Shown here: positions 2,766 through 41,188 of the stretch, piece by piece
Layout: each line of letters starts with the position of its first letter
Position numbering within the stretch: the stretch's first letter is position 1
IMG/VR virus record: IMGVR_UViG_3300016472_001095
Direction: 5' to 3' (one strand)
DNA length: 64,000 nt
From: an uncultured virus (IMG/VR IMGVR_UViG_3300016472_001095)
Taxonomy: Duplodnaviria > Heunggongvirae > Uroviricota > Caudoviricetes
Notes under the pieces: generated by a model
What the model saw: only the letters and a program-made list of their open reading frames with translations
Database searches by the model: none
Told to the model about the DNA's origin: nothing
Translations under genes and position numbers: made by a program

Positions 2766-5354
2766 GTGTATAGAAATGTTGCATATCTTCCTAGAGAGCA
2801 GCTTATGCGGCTATTTACTTGGGATAATGAGGGTAAAAGAGTAGCCCTTGATACAACCTATGAGCCGTACATTTATCTCGAAACAAATAATCATCCTGAC
2901 TGTACTAGTATCTTTAACACCAAATTAAAGAAAAAAAGATTTAAAAATCAAGCTGAACGCTCTAGATATTTAAAAGACAATAAAATTGTAAGAGTATTTG
3001 AAAATCTTAATATTCAACAGCAATTTTTAATTGATAATTTCTGGGAGCACAATGAAAAAGAGGATTTTACTAAACATCAAATAAGAGTTTTGTTTATTGA
3101 TATTGAGACTTACAGTCCCGATGAGTTTCCTAAACCCGACGATCCCACCCATCCCATTAATATTATTACAGTTTATGATACACTAAGAAATAAGTTTATT
3201 ACCTGGGGACTAAAAGCATATCATAAAAATATTGAAAACGGGCTATATATTTATTGTAAAACTGAGAAAGAGTTGTTATCAAAATTTTTAAGTTTTTTTA
3301 CTTCTGATTATCCCGATATACTCTCAGGCTGGAATAGTGAATTTTTTGACGTACCTTATATTATTAATAGAATAACCCGAATTCTTGGTGAGGATGAGAC
3401 AAAAAAATTATCACCAGTTGGTTATATTAGACCTATTATGTTCAAAGGTAAGTTTGGTAGAGAACAGGTGCACTGGCACATAGAGGGCGTTTCATGTGTA
3501 GATTACCTAGACATTTATAAAAGATTTTGCCCTACATTACGCGAATCATATAAACTTGATTCTATTGGTGAGATTGAATTGGGTGAAAATAAGATTGATT
3601 ACGGTGATACTAATCTTACTAGCCTTGCAGATGATAATTGGGAATTGTTTGTAGAGTATAATATCCAGGACGTTAATTTGCTGGTAAGGTTAGAGCAAAA
3701 ACTTCAATATCTTGAATTATTAAGGATGATTGCTTATGCGGGGTTAACTACATTTGAAGGCGCTCTTGGTTCATTATCAGTAATTACGGGTTTATGTGCT
3801 ATTAGAGCGAGGTCTCGTAATCAAAGAATCCCTACTTTTAATAAGGAAGTTCACAGCGATGAACAAAATGCTGGTGCGTATGTTGGTGAACCACGCAAAG
3901 GGTTTCAGGAGAATATAGTTTCATTTGACGCTAATAGTCTATATCCAAATGTTATGATAACATTAAACCTCTCTCCTGAAACAAAGGTAGGGGTAATCAC
4001 AGATAAAAATGATAAAGAAATAACTATACAGCATGTAAACGGACAAGAATTTAAATTATCACATCAAAGCTTTGTTGATTTTGTAAAGAAAGAAAAGATA
4101 GCTATTTCAAAAGCAAAAGTTTTATTTACTCAGAAAGAAAAAGGAATTATACCGGTAACTGTAGATCATTTTTACAAGAAGAGAGTAGAGATTAAAAGAC
4201 AGCTTAAACTTTTACAAAAGAAAATTATTTCTATAGAGAAAAACACAGATGAGTATAAGCAACTCAAATTGCAGATAGATAATTTAAATATTACTCAACA
4301 TACTATAAAAATCTTAATTAATACCATATACGGTTATTTCGGTAATAAGCACAGTCCCTTAGGCGATGATCAGCTAGCTGAGAGTATTACTCTTACAGGC
4401 CAAGCTGTAATTAAAGAATCTAATAGATTATTAGAAGAGTATGTAAAAAGTAAGACAGGAATGAGTAATGAAGATATCATAAAAGATACGCCTATAATTT
4501 ACAATGATACTGATAGTTCGTACATTTCTATTAAACATATCGTACAAAAAACAGGATTAAAAATGCTTGATAGTAAGGGTAAAATTACTTCTGAATACTA
4601 TAAAGAGGTACAGTCAATAGAGGACTATCTTAATAAAAATATTGTTGTCTGGGGTCAAACTGCGCTTGGTTCGCAAGATTGTAGGTTAAATTTTAAGAGA
4701 GAAGCTATAGCAGATGCAGGGATTTTTCTACAGAAAAAGAGATATGTACTTCACGTATTAGATGAGGAAGGCATACCATGCAATAAGTTTAAGTATACAG
4801 GGGTAGAAGTGGTTAGGACTACTATGCCTGCGCCTATAAAGCCCCACGTTAAAAAGATTATTGAGACAATGTTATTAACAAAAGACCTAGCAGCTACTAA
4901 TAAAATTTTTAATGAAACTTATGAAATATTTAAAAACCTTAGCGTAGAAGATATAGCTTTTGTAATGGGCATTAAGGGGTATGAGAAATATTCATCGATG
5001 TGTGACGGCTTTAAGACAGCAAAACATATGCCTATTCACGTAAAAGCTGCATATTTTTATAATATTTTGCTCGATAGGTTTAATACAGGTAAAAAGTATG
5101 AAAAGATATCATCTGGAGATAAAGTAAGATATTTTTATGCTAAACAGCCCAACAAATTCGGTATATCTACTATCGGCTATAAGTATTCCTTTCCTAAAGA
5201 ATTTAATGATGTGTTCGAACCTGATCACGAATTAATGTTTGAGAAAATTATTTTCTCAGTTATTGAGAGATTTTATGATGCAGTTAATTGGAAGCTTCAA
5301 TCCCCAGGGACACAGGTTCAAACTGACCTTTTTGATCTACTAAAAGAAAGTTGA
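2766..5354 (+). CDS. gp43: Family B DNA polymerase (T4 gp43-like)
   Basis: Exonuclease motifs DIET, GWNSEFFD, YNIQD. Polymerase motifs SFDANSLYP, KILINTIYG, YNDTDS, KKRY. Confidence 0.97.
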   Translation: MYRNVAYLPREQLMRLFTWDNEGKRVALDTTYEPYIYLETNNHPDCTSIFNTKLKKKRFKNQAERSRYLKDNKIVRVFENLNIQQQFLIDNFWEHNEKEDFTKHQIRVLFIDIETYSPDEFPKPDDPTHPINIITVYDTLRNKFITWGLKAYHKNIENGLYIYCKTEKELLSKFLSFFTSDYPDILSGWNSEFFDVPYIINRITRILGEDETKKLSPVGYIRPIMFKGKFGREQVHWHIEGVSCVDYLDIYKRFCPTLRESYKLDSIGEIELGENKIDYGDTNLTSLADDNWELFVEYNIQDVNLLVRLEQKLQYLELLRMIAYAGLTTFEGALGSLSVITGLCAIRARSRNQRIPTFNKEVHSDEQNAGAYVGEPRKGFQENIVSFDANSLYPNVMITLNLSPETKVGVITDKNDKEITIQHVNGQEFKLSHQSFVDFVKKEKIAISKAKVLFTQKEKGIIPVTVDHFYKKRVEIKRQLKLLQKKIISIEKNTDEYKQLKLQIDNLNITQHTIKILINTIYGYFGNKHSPLGDDQLAESITLTGQAVIKESNRLLEEYVKSKTGMSNEDIIKDTPIIYNDTDSSYISIKHIVQKTGLKMLDSKGKITSEYYKEVQSIEDYLNKNIVVWGQTALGSQDCRLNFKREAIADAGIFLQKKRYVLHVLDEEGIPCNKFKYTGVEVVRTTMPAPIKPHVKKIIETMLLTKDLAATNKIFNETYEIFKNLSVEDIAFVMGIKGYEKYSSMCDGFKTAKHMPIHVKAAYFYNILLDRFNTGKKYEKISSGDKVRYFYAKQPNKFGISTIGYKYSFPKEFNDVFEPDHELMFEKIIFSVIERFYDAVNWKLQSPGTQVQTDLFDLLKES

Positions 5355-5783: not shown

Positions 5784-6902
5784 ATGAGTAAAGACCTTAA
5801 TAAAATATTTGCGTCACTAGATAAGCTTAATAGCGAAGCTTCTTTTTTAAACGAAAATGCACTTAGTAAAGTTGATGAGTGGTTTGATACTGGATGCTAT
5901 GCTCTTAACGCTATTCTTGGCGGGAGTTGTCGCAACGGTGGCGTACCTAAGGGAAGAATAACAGGATTCTCTGGACCTAGTCAAACTGGTAAGACTTTTA
6001 TTGTAAATAAGATTTTAGCTACTGCTCAAAAAAAAGGTATTACTCCCGTTATATTTGATACTGAAATAGCTATTGATGAAAATAGTACAAAAGGTGTAGG
6101 TTTGGATCCCGAAAATGTAAAATATGTGCCTGTTGACACCATTGATCAGTGTCGTAATCAAGTTAGTGCACTACTCGATAGTATTATAGAAAATGATGCT
6201 AGAGGTAAATTTATACTTAGTATTGACAGTTTAGGCAATCTTGCTTCACAGAAAGAGCTCGATGACGTAGCTAAAGATAAATCTGCAGCGGATATGGGTC
6301 TTCGTGCAAAGTCTTTAAAGAGTATGTTTCGCACTTTAACCTTTAAGGCTGCAAAGGCTGGCGTTACAATTCTTTTTACCAATCATACGTATGATGATCC
6401 AGCTGCAATGTTCCCAAGTCTTGTGAAGAATCAAGCCGGTGGCTCAGGCCCTGTATATATGGCAAGTATACTTGTACAGCTTGCCAAGCGCCACGAGAAG
6501 GAGGGCGAAGGTGATTCTATGGATGTAGAGGACAAGAAGCTAGCAGAAGCCAATAAATACAGCGGTACAACACTTCGTGCATTGACTGTAAAGAATCGCT
6601 TCTTGCCTCCGTTTTTAGAGACTGAAATGTATCTTTCTTTTAAAACCGGTCTTAACAAGTACAGTGGATTGCTTGGTATGGCTGCAGTGAGAGGTATCGT
6701 TGAACAAAACGGTGCCACATACACAGTGGGGATTACAAGCGGTAAGTACAAGAAGGGTGATAAACTAGGGTATGCAAAGACTTTTGCAAAAGATCCTGCT
6801 TTCTACGAGGAATTTATTATTCCTGAGTTAGATAAGAGATTAATAGAGGAATACAAATATAATGCCAACGAAGAAGGTAAAGAAGAAGAACCTATCGAGT
6901 AG
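5784..6902 (+). CDS. uvsX: RecA-like recombinase UvsX
   Basis: DTGCYALN, Walker A GPSQTGKT, IDSLGNLAS, ADMGLRAK, FTNHTY, GGSGPVY, KNRF. Confidence 0.95.
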   Translation: MSKDLNKIFASLDKLNSEASFLNENALSKVDEWFDTGCYALNAILGGSCRNGGVPKGRITGFSGPSQTGKTFIVNKILATAQKKGITPVIFDTEIAIDENSTKGVGLDPENVKYVPVDTIDQCRNQVSALLDSIIENDARGKFILSIDSLGNLASQKELDDVAKDKSAADMGLRAKSLKSMFRTLTFKAAKAGVTILFTNHTYDDPAAMFPSLVKNQAGGSGPVYMASILVQLAKRHEKEGEGDSMDVEDKKLAEANKYSGTTLRALTVKNRFLPPFLETEMYLSFKTGLNKYSGLLGMAAVRGIVEQNGATYTVGITSGKYKKGDKLGYAKTFAKDPAFYEEFIIPELDKRLIEEYKYNANEEGKEEEPIE

Positions 6903-7632
6903 GGCTGTAGTCCCTGTTAGTGGTGGCATGGACAGCTCAGTACTGCTTCATTTAGCAGCTGAACGGTATGATAAGATAGTTGCTGTAAGCTTTGCATATG
7001 GTCAAAAGCACGGGGTAGAAATAATTTATGCTACACGACAGCTAGGCCAAGTACTTAAAAAAGTGGGCGAAAAAAATATAGTACATAAAATTATTAATTT
7101 ACCGTTTTTTAAGGATGTTTGTCAGGTTTCTTCACTTCTTAACAATAAGATTGCAGTAGCTAAAGCCAAGGACGTAATGGGAGATCCGCAAACAGTAAAC
7201 TATGTACCTTACAGAAATACGATGCTGCTAAGTATTGCATTAGCAATAGCTGAAAACTGCGGTGCTTCTACTGTTTTTCATGGTGCTGCGCAGGCTGATA
7301 GTGTTGCGGGATTTTGGGATGGGAGTGAGGAATTTTTAGAACAAATTAACAAACTTTCATCACTCAATAGACGGAACAAGATAACCGTTCAAGCTCCTTT
7401 AATCAAAAAATCTAAATCAGATATTATTAAATTAGGTATAAAGTTGGGAGTAGATTTTAGTCAAACATGGACTTGTTATGAGGGCGGAGAACAGGCCTGC
7501 GGTGAATGTACTGCGTGTTCTTTGAGAATAAAAGGCTTTATTGACGCTGGTTATATAGACCCGGTAAATTATAAAACATTAATACCTTGGGAAAAATATA
7601 AGTGTAAGTTAATCTATAACTCTGCAAAATAA
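6862..7632 (+). CDS. queC: QueC-family (7-cyano-7-deazaguanine synthase-like) PP-loop ATPase
   Basis: PP-loop SGGMDS, YGQKH, YVPYRN, zinc site TWTCY..CGECTAC..R. The usual GYPDC motif reads GFWDG. Confidence 0.88.
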   Translation: MPTKKVKKKNLSSRAVVPVSGGMDSSVLLHLAAERYDKIVAVSFAYGQKHGVEIIYATRQLGQVLKKVGEKNIVHKIINLPFFKDVCQVSSLLNNKIAVAKAKDVMGDPQTVNYVPYRNTMLLSIALAIAENCGASTVFHGAAQADSVAGFWDGSEEFLEQINKLSSLNRRNKITVQAPLIKKSKSDIIKLGIKLGVDFSQTWTCYEGGEQACGECTACSLRIKGFIDAGYIDPVNYKTLIPWEKYKCKLIYNSAK

Positions 7633-8714: not shown

Positions 8715-8936
8715 TTAAGTTACTTGATAGTATATATCTCCGTCGTTGCCAGTAGTATTTAATGGCGGACCGGCTGCAGTAGATACAGTTATATTTGGCT
8801 TGCCGGTTATACTTGCAAATGAAACAGGTAAGCTTGATATTTCAGCTTTACTAGTAGCAACTCCATTAGAAAAAGGTATTACGCTAGTACTATCTGGAAT
8901 AGCAGGGCTTAATTCTGATATAGTAACATCACCCAT
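8715..8936 (-). CDS. Small fibre-associated protein with shared N-terminal anchor module
   Basis: MGDVTISELSP...PFSNGVATSKAEISSL resembles the N-termini of 21157-21888 and 22623-23474. C-terminal PP..TGNDGDIYYQ is a fibre motif. Confidence 0.7.
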   Translation of the reverse strand: MGDVTISELSPAIPDSTSVIPFSNGVATSKAEISSLPVSFASITGKPNITVSTAAGPPLNTTGNDGDIYYQVT

Positions 8937-8948
8937 ATAAATCTCTTT

Positions 8949-9851
8949 TTAAGCAGTACTGTACTTGTCAAATTCGTCGAAGCTTCTTCCACCTTTATAA
9001 CCTAGCTCTCTTGCGATTGAAGTAGGCTCGTCTTCTTCAGGATATTCTTCTACCGTTTCCACTTCACCGGTACCTTCGCCTTCTTTTTTCTCAGATGAAG
9101 GTGAAAAACTATTTTTAAATTTTAATGAATCAATAAAGTCCTGTACCATTTCGCTGTCTTTAGCCATCTTTTCATCATAGGCGCGAATAATAGCCTCTTC
9201 TACTTCTTTTTTAAGCTCAGGTGAATTATAAATATCGCTACCACTAGATACAGTTATTTCATCAGGCAATTCATTAAAGATTGGCATCCATTCTTTAATA
9301 AATCTAACATCGTTTTTTATAAAGGTATTTGTTGTAGAAGCTGGTGTTGCAGGTGATGTACCAGGTGCACCGGGAGCAACTACTTTCTTACCCTCTACCC
9401 CAGAGGTAACAGCTTGCTTGACTTGTGCTGGGCTAGCTGCTGCACCACCTTCTACATCTACTCTTAAAACGTTTAACAAATTGTCAACTATTCTAGCAGT
9501 GTATCTAGCTTCAGTACCGCCGAGTTTAAGTTCGTTTTTAATTAAATTTTCTAAATCTGTTCTAAATTTCATCTTAGATCCCGGATAATAAAGCTTATAT
9601 TCTTTACCATCTATAGTATGAATTGCGGGTTTAAAGAGCTTTGTCTGTATTGCTTGAAGTAAACGATTTGCAATTTCTGCTTTTGTTTTACCTTCCTTTG
9701 CAGCTGTTTTACCAATACCATACCCCTTGCCAGGCGCTTTTTCAATATCACCGGTATATCCTAGCTCGTCAGCATATATAGGTGCTTCTTTTAAAACCCT
9801 AGGTTTTTTAGTTAAATAAGCTTCGAAAATAAGCTTTGTATCTTTGTTCAT
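8949..9851 (-). CDS. Hypothetical late protein, possible internal head protein
   Basis: 300 aa ORF with TAAATA 7 nt upstream of the ATG. N-terminus KLIFEAY. Confidence 0.6.
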   Translation of the reverse strand: MNKDTKLIFEAYLTKKPRVLKEAPIYADELGYTGDIEKAPGKGYGIGKTAAKEGKTKAEIANRLLQAIQTKLFKPAIHTIDGKEYKLYYPGSKMKFRTDLENLIKNELKLGGTEARYTARIVDNLLNVLRVDVEGGAAASPAQVKQAVTSGVEGKKVVAPGAPGTSPATPASTTNTFIKNDVRFIKEWMPIFNELPDEITVSSGSDIYNSPELKKEVEEAIIRAYDEKMAKDSEMVQDFIDSLKFKNSFSPSSEKKEGEGTGEVETVEEYPEEDEPTSIARELGYKGGRSFDEFDKYSTA

Positions 9852-9852
9852 C

Positions 9853-9899
9853 TTGAATTATTTATTCTTTATATTATAATAAATCAGGAGGTTATAGCT
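9853..9899 (+). promoter_or_regulatory. Sigma70-type promoter plus perfect Shine-Dalgarno for the amidotransferase, overlapping a divergent late promoter
   Basis: TTGAAT(9853)-16-TATAAT(9875). AGGAGG at 9886-9891, 8 nt before ATT(9900). Minus-strand TAAATA at 9859-9864. Confidence 0.75.
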
Positions 9900-10583
9900 A
9901 TTTGCGGTATATTTGGTTCTAAAGACTTTACAACTTATGTAAAGCTTTATAAGAGCAACAAGAAACGTGGTACGTTTTCTTACGGTGGTCTACTGATCGG
10001 CTCACATATTCACGCTGTTCTCAAGACACCAGGCACTGCCAACCTATCCAATAAGCTAGTTATAGAGTACGGTAAAAAGAGGAGAAACATTACAGATTTT
10101 GATGTTTTTTTAGGACACACTCAAGCCCCTACATCTGAAAAAAGAACATTTTCACCAAATACATCTCATCCTTTTCAACATAAAGAATGGTTAATTGCAC
10201 ATAACGGGGTTTTAACAAACGATAAGGAATTAAAAAAGCTTATTAAAGATAAAAAATCTTATAACGTTGTAGATTCATCTGTTATTGCACCGCTTATAGC
10301 TATGTTTGTTAAAGAGCTAGATGATGAGGTTGCAGGTGTTTGCAAAGCACTATCGCTACTTAAAGGTACGTTTGGCCTTTGGATATATAATCAAAAAACT
10401 GGTAATATTTTTCTCGCACGATCCGGCAGTACAGTATTCGCAGATTTTCTATCAAACGACTTTTCTTCTTTAAAGGAAAGCGGGTTTGTCCCTCTTGACG
10501 AAGGTACACTATACCTATTAACTAAGGAAGGGTTAACCTCCGTAGGCGTATTTAAGACTAACTCTCCGTTTTTTACACAATGA
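9900..10583 (+). CDS. Class II (Ntn) glutamine amidotransferase, 227 aa, non-canonical ATT start
   Basis: Frame reads ATT-TGC-GGT-ATA-TTT-GGT = (M)CGIFG, then RG, GHTQAPT, SHPF, AHNGVL, VDS. It is in frame with the 93 aa ORF-track fragment starting at 10302. Confidence 0.88.
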   Translation: MCGIFGSKDFTTYVKLYKSNKKRGTFSYGGLLIGSHIHAVLKTPGTANLSNKLVIEYGKKRRNITDFDVFLGHTQAPTSEKRTFSPNTSHPFQHKEWLIAHNGVLTNDKELKKLIKDKKSYNVVDSSVIAPLIAMFVKELDDEVAGVCKALSLLKGTFGLWIYNQKTGNIFLARSGSTVFADFLSNDFSSLKESGFVPLDEGTLYLLTKEGLTSVGVFKTNSPFFTQ

Positions 10584-11272
10584 AAACAGCATTTTATTTT
10601 TGTACAAGAAATTCTAAAGCGCAAGATACTTTTGCATTTAAATCTCTTCAAAGAATTAAACTAGCTACTCTATGGGAGTTTACTATAATTTATAAGGAAA
10701 ATAATAATGACGGATTAAGCTTAAATTATAATAGTGTTTTAGAAAAGCATGGTAAAGATTATGATAACATAGTTTTTATACACGATGATGTTTATATTGA
10801 CGATCTTGGAGTGGTAAATAAGCTAGAAAAAGCTCATAATGATTTTGATATTGTAGGTCTTGCTGGGGGGTTAAATCCTGAAATTAAAGCACCCGCCCTT
10901 TGGCATTTAATGTGTGGGGGGTTTAACAGCGGTAATTTGAGAGGAGCAGTAGCCCATAAATTTAATAATGATCAAATTTTTATGACCAATTTTGGCCCCA
11001 CACCCGCTAGAGTTGCTATTTTAGATGGACTATTCCTAAGCGTTAAAACCGAATGTTTTTTAAAAAAGGAATTTAAATTTAATGAAAATTATAACTTCCA
11101 TCATTATGATATTGCCACCTGTATTGATGCTAATAAAAACAAATTAAAGTTAGGGGTCGTCCCTATATGGGTAGTACATAATTCACCCGGTCTTCTTAAT
11201 ATCAACGATGCTACATTTAGCGCTAGTCAATCTATATTTTTAAGAGAGTATAGCAGTATTGATTCTGTATAA
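10580..11272 (+). CDS. Glycosyltransferase-like protein (GT-A / GT2-like)
   Basis: YNSVL, FIHDDVYIDD, VGLAG, LDGLFL, FHHYDIATC, HNSPG. ATGA-coupled to the amidotransferase. Confidence 0.75.
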   Translation: MKTAFYFCTRNSKAQDTFAFKSLQRIKLATLWEFTIIYKENNNDGLSLNYNSVLEKHGKDYDNIVFIHDDVYIDDLGVVNKLEKAHNDFDIVGLAGGLNPEIKAPALWHLMCGGFNSGNLRGAVAHKFNNDQIFMTNFGPTPARVAILDGLFLSVKTECFLKKEFKFNENYNFHHYDIATCIDANKNKLKLGVVPIWVVHNSPGLLNINDATFSASQSIFLREYSSIDSV

Positions 11273-11292
11273 TTTTAATATATCATAAGAGA

Positions 11293-12621
11293 ATGGTTAA
11301 ATTAGATCTAGATTTTTTTGAGCTTATTATTGCTTATAAATCATTAACTGATGAAACCTATTTAGCTTCTGTTGTCGACCATATAAAGCCTATTTTCTTT
11401 AAAAATAAAGATATTAAAGTTATTTTTACAATAATAAGAGATTTTTATGAAAAAAGAAATGCATGTCCTACCTTAACAGAAATAAAATCGTATTTAACTA
11501 ACGATGAGCTTAAAAATTCATTTAAGAATGTTGTAACACAGTTTAATAATTTAGATAAAAATTTTAACACAGATGAATTATCTGCTAATACAGAAACTTT
11601 TATAAAAGAAAAATCCGTATACCATACAATGATGGATGTAGTAGATGATATCAACAAAAATAGTGTCGACACTTCTAAAATTTTAGCTAAATTTGAAAAA
11701 GCTTGTAGTATATCTTTAACCACTGAAATAGGGTTAGATTTGTATGCTAATTTAGATAGAGTAATTGAAGACCTGCATTCTTCAGAAAAATATATTCCTT
11801 CTAAATGGAAATGGCTTGATGATAAAATAGGAGGTGGGTTTCTAGAATCTGGTAGAGCACTCTATTTGTTTGCAGGCGAAACAAATATTGGTAAAAGTAT
11901 ATTTTTAGGAAATGTAGCTATTAACATAGCTGAGCAAGGAAAGACTGTATTGCTTGTTTCTTTAGAAATGCCAGAAATAATTTATGCTAAAAGACTCGTT
12001 TCAAGTGTATCTAAAATACCATTAAGCCAATTAAAAATAGAGTCTGATTCTTTAAAAAATCAAATTAGCGAGTATTGTATTGAAAATCCAAACGCAAAAA
12101 TTATTATAAAGGAGTTTCCTCCCGCAACAATTACGCCCAACCATTTAAAGGCTTTTATTAAAAAATTAATACAAAAAGGTATTAAGATAGATGCCATAGT
12201 TTTGGATTACGTAAATCTATTACATTCGTCTATGGGTGATTCAAGCTATGAGCGTGTTAAGATTTGTACTGAACAATTAAGAGCTTTATCATATGGGTTT
12301 AATTGCCCTGTTATATCCGCTACTCAGTTAAACCGTGAGGGGTATGAAATAACTGACCCAGGTTTAAAGACAATATCAGAAAGTATAGGGTTGGCTATGA
12401 CAGGTGACGTTATTATGAGTATTTGGCAAGAAGATACAGATAAAGAACTTGGCATTATTAAAATGGGATTAATGAAAAACAGGTTTGGACCTAATTACGG
12501 TCATTGTGCAATGAGGATAGATTATTCAACACTTACTATTACAGAAGACGAGCATATAAATGACACAGAAGCAAGCACTTCTTCAATTAGTACGTTGACA
12601 AAATTAGCTATCGACAATTGA
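11293..12621 (+). CDS. gp41: Replicative DnaB-like helicase (T4 gp41)
   Basis: Walker A GETNIGKS, SLEM, IKEFP, LDYVNL, SATQLNR, SESIGL, KNRFG. Promoter TTGATT(11259)-16-TATCAT(11281)-6-ATG. Confidence 0.95.
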   Translation: MVKLDLDFFELIIAYKSLTDETYLASVVDHIKPIFFKNKDIKVIFTIIRDFYEKRNACPTLTEIKSYLTNDELKNSFKNVVTQFNNLDKNFNTDELSANTETFIKEKSVYHTMMDVVDDINKNSVDTSKILAKFEKACSISLTTEIGLDLYANLDRVIEDLHSSEKYIPSKWKWLDDKIGGGFLESGRALYLFAGETNIGKSIFLGNVAINIAEQGKTVLLVSLEMPEIIYAKRLVSSVSKIPLSQLKIESDSLKNQISEYCIENPNAKIIIKEFPPATITPNHLKAFIKKLIQKGIKIDAIVLDYVNLLHSSMGDSSYERVKICTEQLRALSYGFNCPVISATQLNREGYEITDPGLKTISESIGLAMTGDVIMSIWQEDTDKELGIIKMGLMKNRFGPNYGHCAMRIDYSTLTITEDEHINDTEASTSSISTLTKLAIDN

Positions 12622-12646
12622 TTTATCTATTTAGTTAGATAATTAG

Positions 12647-12943
12647 TTGTTGAATGTGAAAGGTTACGATCCTTCTGAGCAATTAACAGATTATGAACAA
12701 ACTCATTTGTTTTTATCTTTCTGTTCGTTTGTAACACTCACTAATACAAAAAAATTAAATCTTGCTAATGTTTTTATTACCCTTCTTAAGAATAAAGAAT
12801 TTAGAGAGATTTTTAAAATTTATTGTGATTTAAAAAATGATTTTTCAGCTGTAAAATTTTTCTTGCAATTTGATTCAAGCTTGTATAAAAGTAAATATAT
12901 AATGAAATTTTTAAACTCAAATAAAAAGGCGCTTTTCCTATGA
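12647..12943 (+). CDS. Hypothetical protein (start uncertain)
   Basis: 98 aa ORF filling the gap, ATGA-coupled to the next gene. Confidence 0.6.
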   Translation: MLNVKGYDPSEQLTDYEQTHLFLSFCSFVTLTNTKKLNLANVFITLLKNKEFREIFKIYCDLKNDFSAVKFFLQFDSSLYKSKYIMKFLNSNKKALFL

Positions 12944-13152
12944 GCAATATTGTTAATGCTTCTGTAACTTTAGATAAGAAGAAATGTACAGATAAAGTTT
13001 ATTTTGATAAAGCCTACAAAAGGTTTGCAAGAGAATTTTTAAGGTCGGGTGTGTTAGAGGATTTAAGATTTAAAAGGTGTTATTATAAACCAAGCGTGTT
13101 GCGTAAGTTAAAAAAGCAAGTTGCAAGACAGAAGTGGAAGTTTTACAATTGA
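12940..13152 (+). CDS. rpsU: Ribosomal protein bS21 homolog
   Basis: 70 aa and basic. FDKAYKRFAREFLRSGVLEDLRFKRCYYKPSVLRKLKKQVAR matches the bS21 pattern (ALRRFKR..G.L.E.R.R..YEKP...RK). Confidence 0.8.
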   Translation: MSNIVNASVTLDKKKCTDKVYFDKAYKRFAREFLRSGVLEDLRFKRCYYKPSVLRKLKKQVARQKWKFYN

Positions 13153-13790
13153 TTACCGAGTTTGAAAAGCACATTTATAATTCTTATTTAAAAGTCACTA
13201 GATCAAATAGTGAACTACCTTACAAACTTAGAAAAAATTTTGAAAAAGTTGACGATAAGCTTTATGTAGCCTTAAAAAAGCTTTCTTCTTTTTTTAAGAG
13301 ATACCCCCATATAAAAATAGAGGATTTTTTTCGCGCGCCTTATTCTCTTTACCCTGACGAAAAATATTTTCCAATAGAATATTTTTATTCACTTAAAGCT
13401 ATAAAGTCCTATACTTTGTTTAATAAGCAACAGACAAATCTTGATCCGGATAGCGATGAACAGCTTAATAGCATTAAAAATTCATTAATTTTTATAAAAA
13501 GTTTTTGTAGAGATAATAATTTAAATGTAGAAAATTATATTTTTCACAAAACAAAAAATGAATATTCATTTATTTTGCACTTAAAAGAACATAATGTCAA
13601 CGTATATACTTTATTAGGATTTAATAACTTTGAGAAAATTCTTAGAGGCTGTAACCCCGATATTACAAAATTTATTATTGGTGAGGATATATACAACAAC
13701 ATCCAGGTATTTAGAACACGTCTTTATAATTCAAAAAAAGCAAGTAAAGTTGTCGAATATGGACTTAAAAAAATATTAGAAAAAGCTTGA
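13134..13790 (+). CDS. Probable helicase loader (T4 gp59-like)
   Basis: About 215 aa, basic and aromatic-rich, directly upstream of gp32 as in T4. Sequence resemblance is weak and the true start may be TTG at 13149. Confidence 0.5.
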   Translation: MEVLQLITEFEKHIYNSYLKVTRSNSELPYKLRKNFEKVDDKLYVALKKLSSFFKRYPHIKIEDFFRAPYSLYPDEKYFPIEYFYSLKAIKSYTLFNKQQTNLDPDSDEQLNSIKNSLIFIKSFCRDNNLNVENYIFHKTKNEYSFILHLKEHNVNVYTLLGFNNFEKILRGCNPDITKFIIGEDIYNNIQVFRTRLYNSKKASKVVEYGLKKILEKA

Positions 13791-13820
13791 TTAAGCAAAT
13801 AAAGTTATTATTATTATTCT

Positions 13821-14675
13821 ATGAGTACATTTACCACATCGATGTTTGAAAGTATTAAGGGCGCTTTGACGAAAAATAACGAATCTACTGCTTCGAAGGT
13901 TAAAGACTATCTTCGCTGTGAAGCCGGCAACACATATACAGTTAGACTTATTCCTAATGTAAAAGACCCATCTAAGACGTTTTTTCACTATTATTCATAC
14001 GGCTGGAATAGTTTTGCTACTGGTGAGCTTATTACTGCAGTAAGCCCTACTACATGGAATCAGCGTGATCCTATTGCTGAAGAAAGGTATCGTATTTTGA
14101 GAACAGGTACAGAGAAAGAGAAGGAAAAGGCTTTGGCTATTAAGCGTAGAGAAAATTGGTTAGTTAATGTTTATATTATTAACGATCCCGTAAACTCTGA
14201 TAATAATGGGAAGGTAAAGCTCTTACGTTTTGGTCGCCAGCTACATAAAATTATTATGGATGCTATTGAAGGTGAAGAAGCCGCAGAGCTTGGTCCTCGT
14301 ATATTTGACCTATCTCCTAAAGGCTGTAACCTTAGAATTAAAGTTGAGAAGCAGGGTGACTACCCCACATACGTTTCATCTAAGTTTTCTACTCCTAAGG
14401 AAATAGAGGGGTTGGACGAAGATGATTATAAGAAAGTTTATAACAGCTCATTTGATCTTGAGTCATATGTTAGTGTTAAGAGCTACGAAGAGCTTAAAAA
14501 TCTACTTGATGCGCATTACTATGGCACCAAGGATGTTGAAGAGGACGGCGCTGTTACTGCTGAAGTTAAAGCACCTAAGCCTTCAGTTAATGTAACTATT
14601 AATTCTAAGAAGGCTGAGACGAAAGAGACTACAGCCGACGATCAGCAAATAGACGAATTACTTAAAGATCTATAA
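13821..14675 (+). CDS. gp32: Single-stranded DNA-binding protein (T4 gp32-like)
   Basis: VRLIP, DPIAE, NVYIINDP..NNGKVKLLRFG, IFDL..GCNLRIK, YVSSKF, acidic tail. Promoter TTGATT(13787)-16-TATTAT(13809)-6-ATG. Confidence 0.9.
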   Translation: MSTFTTSMFESIKGALTKNNESTASKVKDYLRCEAGNTYTVRLIPNVKDPSKTFFHYYSYGWNSFATGELITAVSPTTWNQRDPIAEERYRILRTGTEKEKEKALAIKRRENWLVNVYIINDPVNSDNNGKVKLLRFGRQLHKIIMDAIEGEEAAELGPRIFDLSPKGCNLRIKVEKQGDYPTYVSSKFSTPKEIEGLDEDDYKKVYNSSFDLESYVSVKSYEELKNLLDAHYYGTKDVEEDGAVTAEVKAPKPSVNVTINSKKAETKETTADDQQIDELLKDL

Positions 14676-21156: not shown

Positions 21157-21888
21157 TTACCATTCTAAAATAACACACCCACCTACACCGCTACCGCTGT
21201 TTGCAGATCCGCCAAAACCAAAATTAGAAAATATTTTTCCAGGTAAATTATTTGTACCGTTTAAGATTATTATTCCACCTGATCCGCTACCACCACCACC
21301 CTGTCCCCCACTGCCTCCAGCAGAATTGTTACCACAATTTTTAAATGCTCCTCCACCGCCATTTCCGCCTGTAGCTACTATGCTGCCTACTGATGTAGAT
21401 CCTCCTACTTGACCAGCACCTGCAGTAACGCCACAACCCGTGCTTCCACCACCGCCACCGCCATTTCCAATAGAAATTGATAGCTGTTGCCCAGGTGTTA
21501 CATCTAAAATACCTAAACAGCATCCACCCCCACCACCAGCTCCGCCTCCATATGCTCCATAGCTAGAGGATGCACCTCCCCCTGCACCGCCCCCACCACC
21601 TATACATGTAACTTTTAATTTTGTTATATTAGAAGGTACAGTAAATGTACTGGATGAGGTAAATAGCTGTAAGCCGCTAAACGTAGAAAAAGATGGTTTA
21701 TTTAACAAATCGGTGTAACTACCAGTTGTCGCAACAGTAGCTAATGTAGGCTTGTTGGCTATATTAGTATAATCTACTTGTAAAGCTGATAATTGTGCTT
21801 TACCGGTTGTACTTCCATTTGATATAGGGACAACCAGAGAGCCTTGAGGAGTTATATCATTTAATTGAGATATAGTTATATCAGCCAT
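21157..21888 (-). CDS. Glycine-rich fibre protein with shared N-terminal anchor module
   Basis: MADITISQL N-terminus, LATVATTGSYTDLLNKP fibre repeat, FTVPSNITKLKVTCIGGGGG...GCVILEW glycine-rich domain typical of phage fibre tips. Confidence 0.8.
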   Translation of the reverse strand: MADITISQLNDITPQGSLVVPISNGSTTGKAQLSALQVDYTNIANKPTLATVATTGSYTDLLNKPSFSTFSGLQLFTSSSTFTVPSNITKLKVTCIGGGGGAGGGASSSYGAYGGGAGGGGGCCLGILDVTPGQQLSISIGNGGGGGGSTGCGVTAGAGQVGGSTSVGSIVATGGNGGGGAFKNCGNNSAGGSGGQGGGGSGSGGIIILNGTNNLPGKIFSNFGFGGSANSGSGVGGCVILEW

Positions 21889-22616
21889 TATTGATAACCT
21901 CCATATACATCTGAATAATCTGTTTTGCTATAGTCAAAAACATTTTTTGATGCTACATTGACATCGTAGCTATAAGGCTTTTGTGCTCCTGAAGCTGTAG
22001 GCGACGTGGTGTCATCAAATACTTGATCATTTTGCGCTTCTGGCGTTACTCCAGGTTCAAACGAGTATTCGAATCTCTTAGCTTTTATCAACCAAACATA
22101 ATGACCTGCAAGAGGATTAATTTGTGCTATATCTTGATCTAATCTTTGGGTAATTTCATATATATTACCGTTTCTACCCCCCGGCCTATCATTACCATAT
22201 TCGGTTAATTGAAAAAGATCGCCAGCTTTAGGTTCTGCACCCTGCCCAAAAGTAGCATAAAACGCGCTTATATGAACAAATGCAGTGACTTCGTCATCTG
22301 ATACTAAGCCAAACTTACTTAAAAGCAATGCATTTTCATTTAAATTAATAGCTATAATTAAATCTTGAGGAGGAGAGTATTGTTGTGTTGGCTGCTCTCC
22401 GTAAAGCATGTCTGCACTTAATGTACTAGTATTATTAACTATATAACCAACTTTCTGTCCATAAAGATTAATTTGTTCTCTCCAGTAATTAGATATAATG
22501 TTTCTTTCGTCTGTATTTTTACTTTTATCTGTAAATCTAAAACAAGTATTATCTACAAAAAAGAAAGGGTATGTCTTAGACTGTTCTAGATTACCTGTAT
22601 AATATTCTGTAGACAT
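21888..22616 (-). CDS. gp14: Neck / head-closure protein (T4 gp14-like)
   Basis: EQINLYGQKVGYI, LYGE, LSKFGL...DE, PKAGDL, YEIT, YVWLIKAKRFEYS. Confidence 0.8.
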   Translation of the reverse strand: MSTEYYTGNLEQSKTYPFFFVDNTCFRFTDKSKNTDERNIISNYWREQINLYGQKVGYIVNNTSTLSADMLYGEQPTQQYSPPQDLIIAINLNENALLLSKFGLVSDDEVTAFVHISAFYATFGQGAEPKAGDLFQLTEYGNDRPGGRNGNIYEITQRLDQDIAQINPLAGHYVWLIKAKRFEYSFEPGVTPEAQNDQVFDDTTSPTASGAQKPYSYDVNVASKNVFDYSKTDYSDVYGGYQ

Positions 22617-40674: not shown

Positions 40675-40708
40675 TTGAATTTCTACAGTTATAATATATA
40701 ATTTAAGT
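40675..40708 (+). promoter_or_regulatory. Sigma70-type promoter, leaderless geometry, for dut-gp44
   Basis: TTGAAT(40675)-16-TATAAT(40697)-6-ATG(40709). Confidence 0.75.
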
Positions 40709-41188
40709 ATGTATAATATTAATCCCTATTCTAATAGAGACATAGATCCAAATATACAGTTTATTCCTGTATTAAAGTTTGAGAAAACCCATGAATTAGC
40801 TAAATTACCTTCCAAAAACCATGAATCTGATACAGGATATGACGTCTATTCAATTGAAAGTAAAGTAATACCTGCTAAATCTAGCGCTACAGTAGGCGTT
40901 GGATTAAAATTTGCTTATATTCCTGACGGCTATTGGGTAAAGGTAGAATCTAGAAGCGGTCTAGGGTTTAAGCACAGTATACTAGCTCATCCCGGTATTA
41001 TAGATAGTGGTTATAGAGGTGATGCTGGGGTAAAACTGTACAATTTGTCTGATAAAGATTATGAAATTAAAGAAGGAGATAGAATAGCTCAATTTGTCAT
41101 ATATTTTAATATTTCTATGCCAGTAGAATGGGGGGTCGCAGAAAAATCTGAAAGAGGTGAAAAGGGATTTGGATCATCCGGTAAGTAA
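40709..41188 (+). CDS. dut: Trimeric dUTPase
   Basis: Five conserved motifs: GYDV, SRSGLG, GIIDSGYRG, GDRIAQ, RGEKGFGSSG. Confidence 0.96.
   Translation: MYNINPYSNRDIDPNIQFIPVLKFEKTHELAKLPSKNHESDTGYDVYSIESKVIPAKSSATVGVGLKFAYIPDGYWVKVESRSGLGFKHSILAHPGIIDSGYRGDAGVKLYNLSDKDYEIKEGDRIAQFVIYFNISMPVEWGVAEKSERGEKGFGSSGK

Follow-up and report, generated by a model that had tools for sequence, protein, structure and literature searches.

An ATT-initiated amidotransferase gene with a Shine-Dalgarno leader in an apparently leaderless T4-like phage, and its ATG-initiated relatives

How a gene can come to start at ATT behind a perfect Shine-Dalgarno (SD) sequence, in a phage genome where such sequences otherwise precede genes no more often than chance would have it, is the question raised by a small reading frame of an uncultured member of the Caudoviricetes. 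The window analysed here is a stretch of 64,000 nucleotides (nt) from IMG/VR virus record IMGVR_UViG_3300016472_001095, and the gene in question, at positions 9900 to 10583, encodes a stand-alone glutamine amidotransferase. A first-pass annotation had proposed that this gene is longer than called, that it starts at ATT, and that it might be gated by the level of initiation factor 3 (IF3) or by anti-SD availability, possibly in connection with the ribosomal protein bS21 that the phage encodes. As detailed below, comparison with related loci points to another answer, in which a strong SD, a U at position -1 and a weak AUU codon together may replace the AUG of a leaderless message.

The start region of the gene is composed of the following elements:

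9853..9858, plus strand: -35 hexamer TTGAAT of the early-type promoter of the amidotransferase operon
9875..9880, plus strand: -10 hexamer TATAAT, after a 16-nt spacer
9886..9891, plus strand: SD sequence AGGAGG, on which the predicted 5' end of the transcript (about 9886-9888) falls
9892..9899, plus strand: A/T-rich 8-nt spacer, its last base being the T at -1 (9899)
9900..9902, plus strand: ATT initiation codon, immediately 5' of the Cys1 codon
9903..9905, plus strand: Cys1 codon TGC, for the catalytic N-terminal nucleophile once Met is removed (a predicted removal)
9900..10583, plus strand: stand-alone class-II (N-terminal nucleophile, Ntn) glutamine amidotransferase, 226 aa from Cys1, recognised by profile and fold matches

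The plus-strand frame is open from 9816 to the stop codon at 10581-10583, and the list of open reading frames (ORFs) gives only 93 aa because no canonical in-frame start (ATG, GTG or TTG) occurs before 10302. The longer gene proposed by the first-pass annotation is fully borne out, with its frame, its ATT, its TGC and an AGGAGG separated from the start by 8 nt, and so is the promoter proposed with it, TTGAAT-16-TATAAT followed by a leader of about 13 nt with the SD at its 5' end, this end being predicted. The promoter matches the consensus at 10 of 12 positions and belongs to the three best promoter-like sites in the region 8800-13300. With 19 nt between the end of the -10 box and ATT, the predicted leader measures 13-14 nt, and from this geometry transcription is inferred to begin on the SD itself. 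The gene is thus not leaderless, its start codon lying away from the predicted transcript 5' end. Masking of the SD by mRNA structure was considered and rejected, the first 80 nt folding no better than shuffled sequences (z = -0.97).

Two IMG/VR scans and one metagenome-contig scan yielded 165 loci, which were reduced to 111 distinct ones and then to 110 after setting aside locus L211, where a small frame-shifting deletion just after ATT-Cys (L211:890-910) indicates a dead copy or an assembly error. Since related assemblies contributed many of these loci, the numbers of loci given below should not be read as numbers of events. The start codon is ATT in 62 of the 110 loci and ATG, at the same position, in the remaining 48, no other codon being found, and TGC or TGT follows directly in all 110. 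An error or inactivating mutation private to the window, which had been named as a possible refutation, is therefore contradicted by the relatives, and the suggested check on the conservation of ATT and SD shows that every ATT locus has a strong SD. Duplex energies between SD and anti-SD range from -8.0 to -13.6 kcal/mol in 62/62 ATT loci (median -11.5), as against a median of +0.65 in ATG loci; the spacer between GGAGG and the start codon is 8-10 nt long in 61/62 ATT loci, and most ATG loci have no SD. The two types differ equally in their distance from the promoter, with 18-22 nt between the end of the -10 box and the start in all 50 ATT loci with a promoter call and 5-12 nt in 41 of 43 ATG loci. 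In these 41 loci with a recognisable promoter, the ATG message is predicted to be leaderless and has no SD. The -10 hexamer of ATT loci is followed after 4-8 nt by the GGAGG core (50/50; 5-6 nt in 43/50), at the position given in this phage to the A of leaderless ATG codons, and the mRNA of ATT loci is for this reason predicted to begin with the SD.

The base at -1 sets the two types further apart, with T in 62/62 ATT loci and in 11/48 ATG loci. The remainder of the spacer drifts freely, 11 different codons being found at -1, and the TTGAAW motif and T-rich spacer block of the promoter are kept in ATT and ATG loci alike. According to excerpts of PMC10018350, A37 of the initiator tRNA is the pairing partner of a U at -1, and the invariant T at -1 fits such a pairing, which would offset the third-position mismatch of AUU. 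Mixed designs are rare and incomplete. Among the 110 loci, none combines ATG with a strong SD at 8-10 nt, and none has ATT without an SD. Five ATG loci do have a leader, but their SDs are all weak or mis-spaced, with AGGAG at 13 and 11 nt in L077 and L083, respectively, GAGG at 12 nt in L170 and L171, and AAGGA at 10 nt in L095. The ATT design also recurs in another leadered setting, that of L175, where a 66-aa hydrophobic ORF (L175:480-680) is inserted between the divergent gene and the amidotransferase, and where the amidotransferase, predicted to be the second gene of its transcript, again has AGGAGG and ATT.

The first-pass annotation had placed the start directly before Cys on the premise that the catalytic cysteine must be N-terminal. 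The position stands, since the ATG relatives start at the same codon, but the premise was overstated: Cys1 alone does not force the start. Some Ntn amidotransferases, such as PurF of B. subtilis, carry a propeptide that is cleaved off, and the assignment made here therefore rests on comparative data. An upstream start with a propeptide was rejected for the family, in-frame canonical starts being present in just 6 of the 62 ATT loci, where they are either the TTG of the -35 box or not conserved, and an in-frame stop occurs within 7 codons upstream in 33/62 ATT loci. The sole upstream ATG is that of L231, a nuclease-bearing ATT locus whose SD is degenerate and where an in-frame ATG precedes ATT by 4 codons (L231:1100-1210); its enzyme may be made with a 5-residue propeptide. 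Codons 1-58 are under purifying selection, with a ratio of nonsynonymous to synonymous diversity (pN/pS) of 0.07-0.37, at a pS of 0.52-0.87 that indicates near-saturated synonymous sites. Judged from these comparisons, ATT is the true start and is maintained by selection.

The genomic background against which this start stands out is that of a distant T4-like myovirus. The window is part of a 139,594-bp record (G000; 33.5% GC, estimated completeness 66%) that encodes Gp23, Gp20, gp32, a RecA/UvsX-like protein, a family-B polymerase, and sheath and baseplate proteins; its major capsid protein is about 32% identical to cyanomyophage proteins, and no DNA match to cultured phages was found for the record. 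In record G013, labelled 'provirus' by IMG/VR, the GC of the ends is even and phage-like. In G000, SD-like 5-mers or longer motifs precede 13 of 173 called genes, as compared with 11.7 expected at random positions. With an early-type promoter pattern defined as TTGAnn, 16-18 nt, TAnnnT, 14 promoter-like sites were found whose -10 hexamer is followed, exactly 6 nt on, by an ORF-opening start codon. In 39/173 genes, the start is preceded by a late-type element resembling ATAAATA, which ends 5 or 6 nt ahead of it. The early-type sites of the window, each predicted to give a leaderless message, include the following:

11259-11295: leaderless early-type start of a helicase gene (start 11293)
13787-13823: leaderless early-type start of gp32 (start 13821)
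40675-40711: leaderless early-type start of a dUTPase gene (start 40709)

Leaderless mRNAs thus appear to be produced in both the early-type and the late-type class of this T4-like phage, whose lineage as a whole seems built for such expression. Two further statements of the first-pass annotation, that the genome is otherwise leaderless and that the amidotransferase has the only perfect SD at a gene start, agree with these counts, SD use elsewhere being at chance level. The amidotransferase is the only real gene of the record pairing an SD with a non-canonical start; on inspection by eye, five other matches of this kind were taken as antisense or internal, or as lying one codon ahead of a real ATG. 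Very few other genes have a good SD; among them is a glycine-rich late gene (21157-21888, minus strand) with GGAGGT 8 nt before its ATG (21888-21905), so that SD and ATG together are allowed in this phage for other genes.

Decoding of AUU by a dedicated phage tRNA was also considered. The only tRNA gene of the record has a CAT anticodon (L005:10751-10825), and its anticodon stem, examined by eye, lacks the three G-C pairs that mark initiator tRNAs, so that a phage initiator tRNA reading AUU was rejected; the gene may encode an elongator tRNA for Met, or else a lysidine-type tRNA that reads AUA as Ile. No translation-factor family turned up in Pfam scans of 172 ORFs of the record. Elsewhere in the same record is a gene for a 64-aa histone H1-like Hc1 protein (L006:2244-2435; PF07432, 2.4e-16). 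A limited literature search, which does not prove absence from print, found no paper on leaderless T4-like phages and none on an ATT-start phage amidotransferase.

Changes between the two designs have been repeated and concerted. The best protein tree of the 110 loci has 11 start-codon changes, and its well-supported branches force at least five; in a first set of 79 loci, codon and SD changed together in 5/5 independent pairs (sign test p = 0.0625). The window lies inside a clade of 42 ATT loci (support 99) that has kept the design through about 30% protein divergence. Three different 5' architectures are found on closely related coding sequences (alignment A5), and alleles of differing architecture are 10-17% apart in DNA, which indicates that the switches are not very recent; a very recent switch between L204 and L194 was rejected on the same grounds, the proteins differing by about 0.03 and the DNA by about 17%. 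The boundary can be sharp, as in the pairs L230/L231 and L204/L085, where coding DNA is alike from Cys1 onwards and everything upstream from the third base of the start codon differs.

Part of this history involves a mobile gene. In 7 distinct ATT loci, as against 0/48 ATG loci, a homing endonuclease of 238-244 aa lies head to head directly upstream of the amidotransferase. It matches phrog_314 (6.6e-35 to 2.5e-31) and, weakly, the Pfam GIY-YIG family (3.1e-4; 21.4 bits, for a curated cut-off of 22.6). Nuclease-bearing loci of the L075 type are leadered and again have AGGAGG and ATT. ATT was kept in L069, where about 150 nt of the nuclease gene are left, and in L212, where only a cassette leader of about 45 nt remains, fused to the native promoter. 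The ATT design would then, at least in part, have arrived or moved with a selfish element and survived the loss of this element. The window itself has no tblastn match to the homing endonuclease, its two divergent start codons being 48 nt apart, and no nuclease gene or recognisable remnant was found in 53 of the 62 ATT loci, including the window and the whole 42-locus clade. A co-conversion tract around the start was not seen either, divergence being even along the gene in 8 pairs. The arrangement resembles that of the free-standing GIY-YIG homing endonucleases of T4 (Seg proteins), whose small genes are set between conserved T4-like genes, patchy among close relatives and travelling with their flanks; it differs in that the window has no nuclease gene at the site and that the nuclease of the relatives falls below the Pfam GIY-YIG cut-off. 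Two likely mobile genes occur at other places of G000, namely a SegE-type GIY-YIG gene (L008:10244-10660; 5.8e-31) and a TnsA-like endonuclease gene between the prohead protease and a head gene (L007:4190-4648), and both are unrelated to the nuclease found at the amidotransferase start of the relatives.

The encoded enzyme is well defined. Read from the TGC at 9903, the product begins CGIFGS and matches GATase_6 (3.4e-10) and GATase_7 (8.9e-07). An AlphaFold2 model built on 20 relatives has a predicted local distance difference test (pLDDT) score of 92.6 and a predicted template modelling (pTM) score of 0.90, and displays the four-layer alpha-beta-beta-alpha Ntn fold. The top Foldseek matches are the glutaminase domains of GlmS, GFAT-1 and PurF (probability 1.00, template modelling (TM) scores 0.65-0.74), the best being the GlmS domain 1xff_A (TM 0.72, E 5.5e-12). 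Besides Cys1, which is invariant in alignments A2 (20 sequences) and A3 (16 sequences), two catalytic elements were located:

10200-10208, plus strand: His100-Asn101-Gly102, invariant
10272-10274, plus strand: Asp124, invariant

A profile alignment places these residues on the HNG and D-T/S-E motifs of GlmS from E. coli. Arg81, a candidate for the Arg that contacts the carboxylate of glutamine, is invariant too, and the HMMER alignment to GlmS begins only at profile position 86. Profile matches, GlmS-like fold and invariant catalytic residues together confirm the Ntn amidotransferase identity given by the first-pass annotation. Fold, Cys1, the oxyanion motif His-Asn-Gly and the Asp contacting the amino group of the substrate are common to this protein, GlmS (1xff) and the N-domain of PurF, but it is only 17-21% identical to the other two and has no fused synthase domain. 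The family is restricted to phage and metagenome contigs, the nearest proteins among 185,579 species genomes being 26-29% identical. In the best 120 protein clusters, 46 cover at most 95% of the query, and one is called from the TTG inside the -35 box. Gene callers thus miss or truncate the gene, and a widespread phage enzyme is mis-annotated in public data.

The most consistent companion of the amidotransferase is QueC, encoded in the window within a larger set of 7-deazaguanine genes:

6862..7632, plus strand: QueC (preQ0 synthase family; PF06508, 6.6e-56), the likely functional partner
L006:15800-19303, L008:440-1090 and 3210-3860, and 6862-7632 of the window: 7-deazaguanine gene set

Of 33 long related records, 31 encode QueC, in every case close to the amidotransferase, and in the two records that lack it the amidotransferase is at the contig end. 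In the window, the two genes are distinct and lie 2.3 kb from each other, three minus-strand genes intervening; in L248, the most distant homologue (45% identity), they are again separate ORFs, the amidotransferase ATG coming directly after the QueC stop. Both proteins match phrog_10428, each in a different half. The record also carries FolE, QueD, QueF, a formyltransferase and a GMP-reductase/IMPDH-family gene. No QueE was recognised by Pfam in the same record, and TGT/DpdA (PF01702), the DNA transglycosylase that would insert the base, had no match in this record (66% complete) or in the 5 largest related ones (up to 88%), a search that a divergent DpdA could escape. On these associations, the amidotransferase most likely delivers glutamine-derived ammonia to QueC or to a later 7-deazaguanine step. 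Gat-QueC offers a precedent: as described in excerpts of PMC6884629 and PMC10516641, this fusion of a class-II amidotransferase domain with QueC leads to archaeosine (dG+) in phage 9g as well as in Crenarchaeota. Both cases tie a class-II amidotransferase to QueC, the phage studied here having FolE, QueD and QueF in addition; unlike Gat-QueC, it has two genes in place of one polypeptide, no similarity at BLAST level to the Gat-QueC of cultured phages, and no TGT/DpdA match. The formyltransferase gene next to QueF recalls DpdN, a preQ1 formyltransferase proposed in a portion of PMC10516641.

The surroundings of the amidotransferase gene include the following features:

10580..11272, plus strand: glycosyltransferase-like gene (PF13712, 9.9e-11), its ATG overlapping the amidotransferase stop (ATGA), without SD
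8949..9851, minus strand: divergent 300-aa gene, its ATG (9849-9851) lying 1 nt from the -35 box
9859..9866, minus strand: putative late-promoter-like element AATAAATA, 7 nt before the ATG of the divergent gene and overlapping the plus-strand promoter spacer
12940..13152, plus strand: phage bS21 gene (PF01165, 2e-10), about 2.4-2.5 kb downstream of the amidotransferase

The ATGA overlap and the missing SD suggest that the glycosyltransferase-like gene is probably translated by coupling to the amidotransferase. It is found immediately downstream in 67/67 loci having 2.5-kb flanks and has no relative in cultured phages. Its candidacy as functional partner was rejected, as it is absent beside L248, where QueC adjoins instead. 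Upstream, the 48-nt intergenic space (9852-9899) contains two putative promoters, back to back and overlapping, and this sharing would account for the conservation of the block in all relatives. The bS21 gene is present in 24 of 33 long related records, beside ATT and ATG versions alike, and was not seen in the 79-kb ATT record behind L069; it has no tblastn match in cultured phages and 16 database relatives, of which 4 are named 'ribosomal protein S21'. With no exclusive co-occurrence, bS21 was rejected as partner of the ATT design, and the link to it drawn by the first-pass annotation finds no support in these occurrences.

Taken together, these observations make it reasonably probable that a strong SD, a U at -1 and a weak AUU form a balanced substitute for a leaderless AUG, held by dosage selection and partly borne by a nuclease. 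According to this scheme, an early sigma-70-type promoter would give an mRNA beginning at or within a base of GGAGG, and translation would start from AUU after an 8-nt spacer ending in U, while related phages would translate this enzyme from an AUG located right at the mRNA 5' end or beside it, without a leader, as they do with most of their genes. Once a leader is present, a strong SD would be needed in this otherwise SD-poor system; combined with AUG, it would over-produce the amidotransferase and its coupled downstream gene, and AUU with U at -1 would lower the output back into the selected range. A homing-endonuclease cassette could bring SD leader and ATT, and leave both behind when the nuclease gene is lost. 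On the other side of the exchange, a leaderless message needs AUG (excerpts of PMC8459731 and PMC9031893). Several points weigh against this scheme. The similar output of both designs, and dosage as the selected trait, are both inferred. Only ATT is seen, although pure dosage tuning would allow GTG or TTG with a moderate SD, and this exclusivity points to something specific to AUU or to common descent of the leaders. The rules of initiation are assumed from E. coli and Caulobacter and may not be those of the host. Five pairs cannot give a p value below 0.0625, and the energy threshold of the tree analysis reduces the pairs that differ in SD to 3.6 of 5 (p 0.125). Among the apparent start changes, some are transfers of one cassette and not separate mutations. 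Finally, the leaderless state of the ATG relatives is not uniform: in L248 the ATG directly follows the QueC stop and is thus not leaderless, and in ATG loci with 9 nt after TATAAT (17/43) a leader of 1-3 nt is as likely as none.

Other explanations have to be weighed against dosage balance. That ATT is an assembly error or an inactivating mutation, leaving a pseudogene or a start elsewhere, might be suspected from gene callers missing the start, from the many clusters that cover the query incompletely and from the one starting in the -35 box; ATT is nonetheless present in 62 distinct loci from many assemblies, with purifying selection from codon 1, invariant catalytic residues, and conserved SD, spacing and -1 base, a disrupted start region being found in just one locus (L211). 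This explanation is highly improbable and, as far as comparative data go, refuted. We consider it unlikely, with less assurance, that the start is the footprint of a selfish element or a form of target immunity, in which a free-standing homing endonuclease would repeatedly insert at the gene start or cut close to it, SD leader and G-to-T change would represent a cassette junction or an uncuttable allele, and ATT would persist, with no translational advantage, because reversion would restore a cleavable site. The confinement of the nuclease to ATT loci, the recurrence of the same leader in distant protein backgrounds, the retention of ATT in L069 and L212 after nuclease loss, and the abrupt upstream divergence in L230/L231 and L204/L085 would all be accommodated. 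Yet most ATT loci have neither nuclease nor remnant, homology of their leaders to the cassette leader is not demonstrable, and the expected co-conversion patch is absent; immunity alone, moreover, leaves the invariant U at -1, the 8-10 nt spacing and the weak SDs of the leadered ATG loci unexplained.

The idea that the start acts as a sensor of IF3, closest to the gating proposed by the first-pass annotation, appears quite unlikely. AUU would here be kept because IF3 disfavours it, the enzyme being made when IF3 falls relative to ribosomes or when ribosome composition changes, for instance through phage bS21, and the leaderless AUG alleles would be under the same control. In its favour is the exclusivity of ATT (62/62, never GTG, TTG, ATA or ATC), which fits a need for a codon that IF3 discriminates. 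Both designs belong to IF3-sensitive classes in E. coli, where AUU starts and leaderless mRNAs alike are disfavoured by IF3 (excerpts of PMC9031893 and PMC8459731); in E. coli, too, bS21 supports the anti-SD, and its absence favours a leaderless mRNA (excerpts of PMC10491246), and the phage encodes a bS21 about 2.4 kb downstream. Against these stand the presence of bS21 with both versions, its absence from the 79-kb record behind L069, and the nature of the product, a metabolic enzyme with no known feedback on translation; the exclusive use of ATT could equally reflect shared descent of the leaders and AT-biased mutation. A wider formulation, to which we likewise give little credence, would treat 5'-terminal SD with AUU and 5'-terminal AUG as interchangeable solutions disfavoured by IF3, the enzyme and its coupled gene tracking the state of initiation factors and ribosomes, which the phage bS21 might itself reshape, and nuclease traffic forcing the switches. 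If this were true, the family would report naturally on IF3-type discrimination in a host that is uncultured and translates leaderless messages. Dosage balance, the simpler account, accommodates the data no less well than a bS21/IF3 sensor when joined to a history of homing endonucleases.

Known start-site systems help to place these findings. In E. coli, infC, which encodes IF3, and pcnB start with AUU. The amidotransferase resembles them in having a conserved AUU, one mutation away from AUG and of the class disfavoured by IF3, that selection keeps behind an SD (61/62 ATT loci at 8-10 nt); it differs in that its product is a phage metabolic enzyme with no evident autoregulatory loop, that AUU alternates with a leaderless AUG, that the SD stands at the predicted mRNA 5' end, and that the U at -1 is invariant. 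With leaderless mRNAs such as lambda cI and those of Caulobacter and actinobacteria (excerpts of PMC9031893 and PMC8459731), the ATG relatives and many other genes of this phage share a start at the predicted 5' end, and the leaderless form is again tied to AUG, whereas the gene of the window is itself an exception, with its leader of about 13 nt and its SD.

None of the start-site behaviour described here amounts to a new kind of mechanism, but the comparative signal is unusually clean. In more than 100 natural variants, leader, SD strength, spacing, -1 base and start codon change together in an all-or-none manner, supporting the rule that leaderless initiation needs AUG and that a strong SD with U at -1 can carry AUU. 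From the history of the locus, it also seems that the translation start of a gene can be rewritten by a neighbouring homing endonuclease. This phage family thus offers a natural example of start signals that evolve together.

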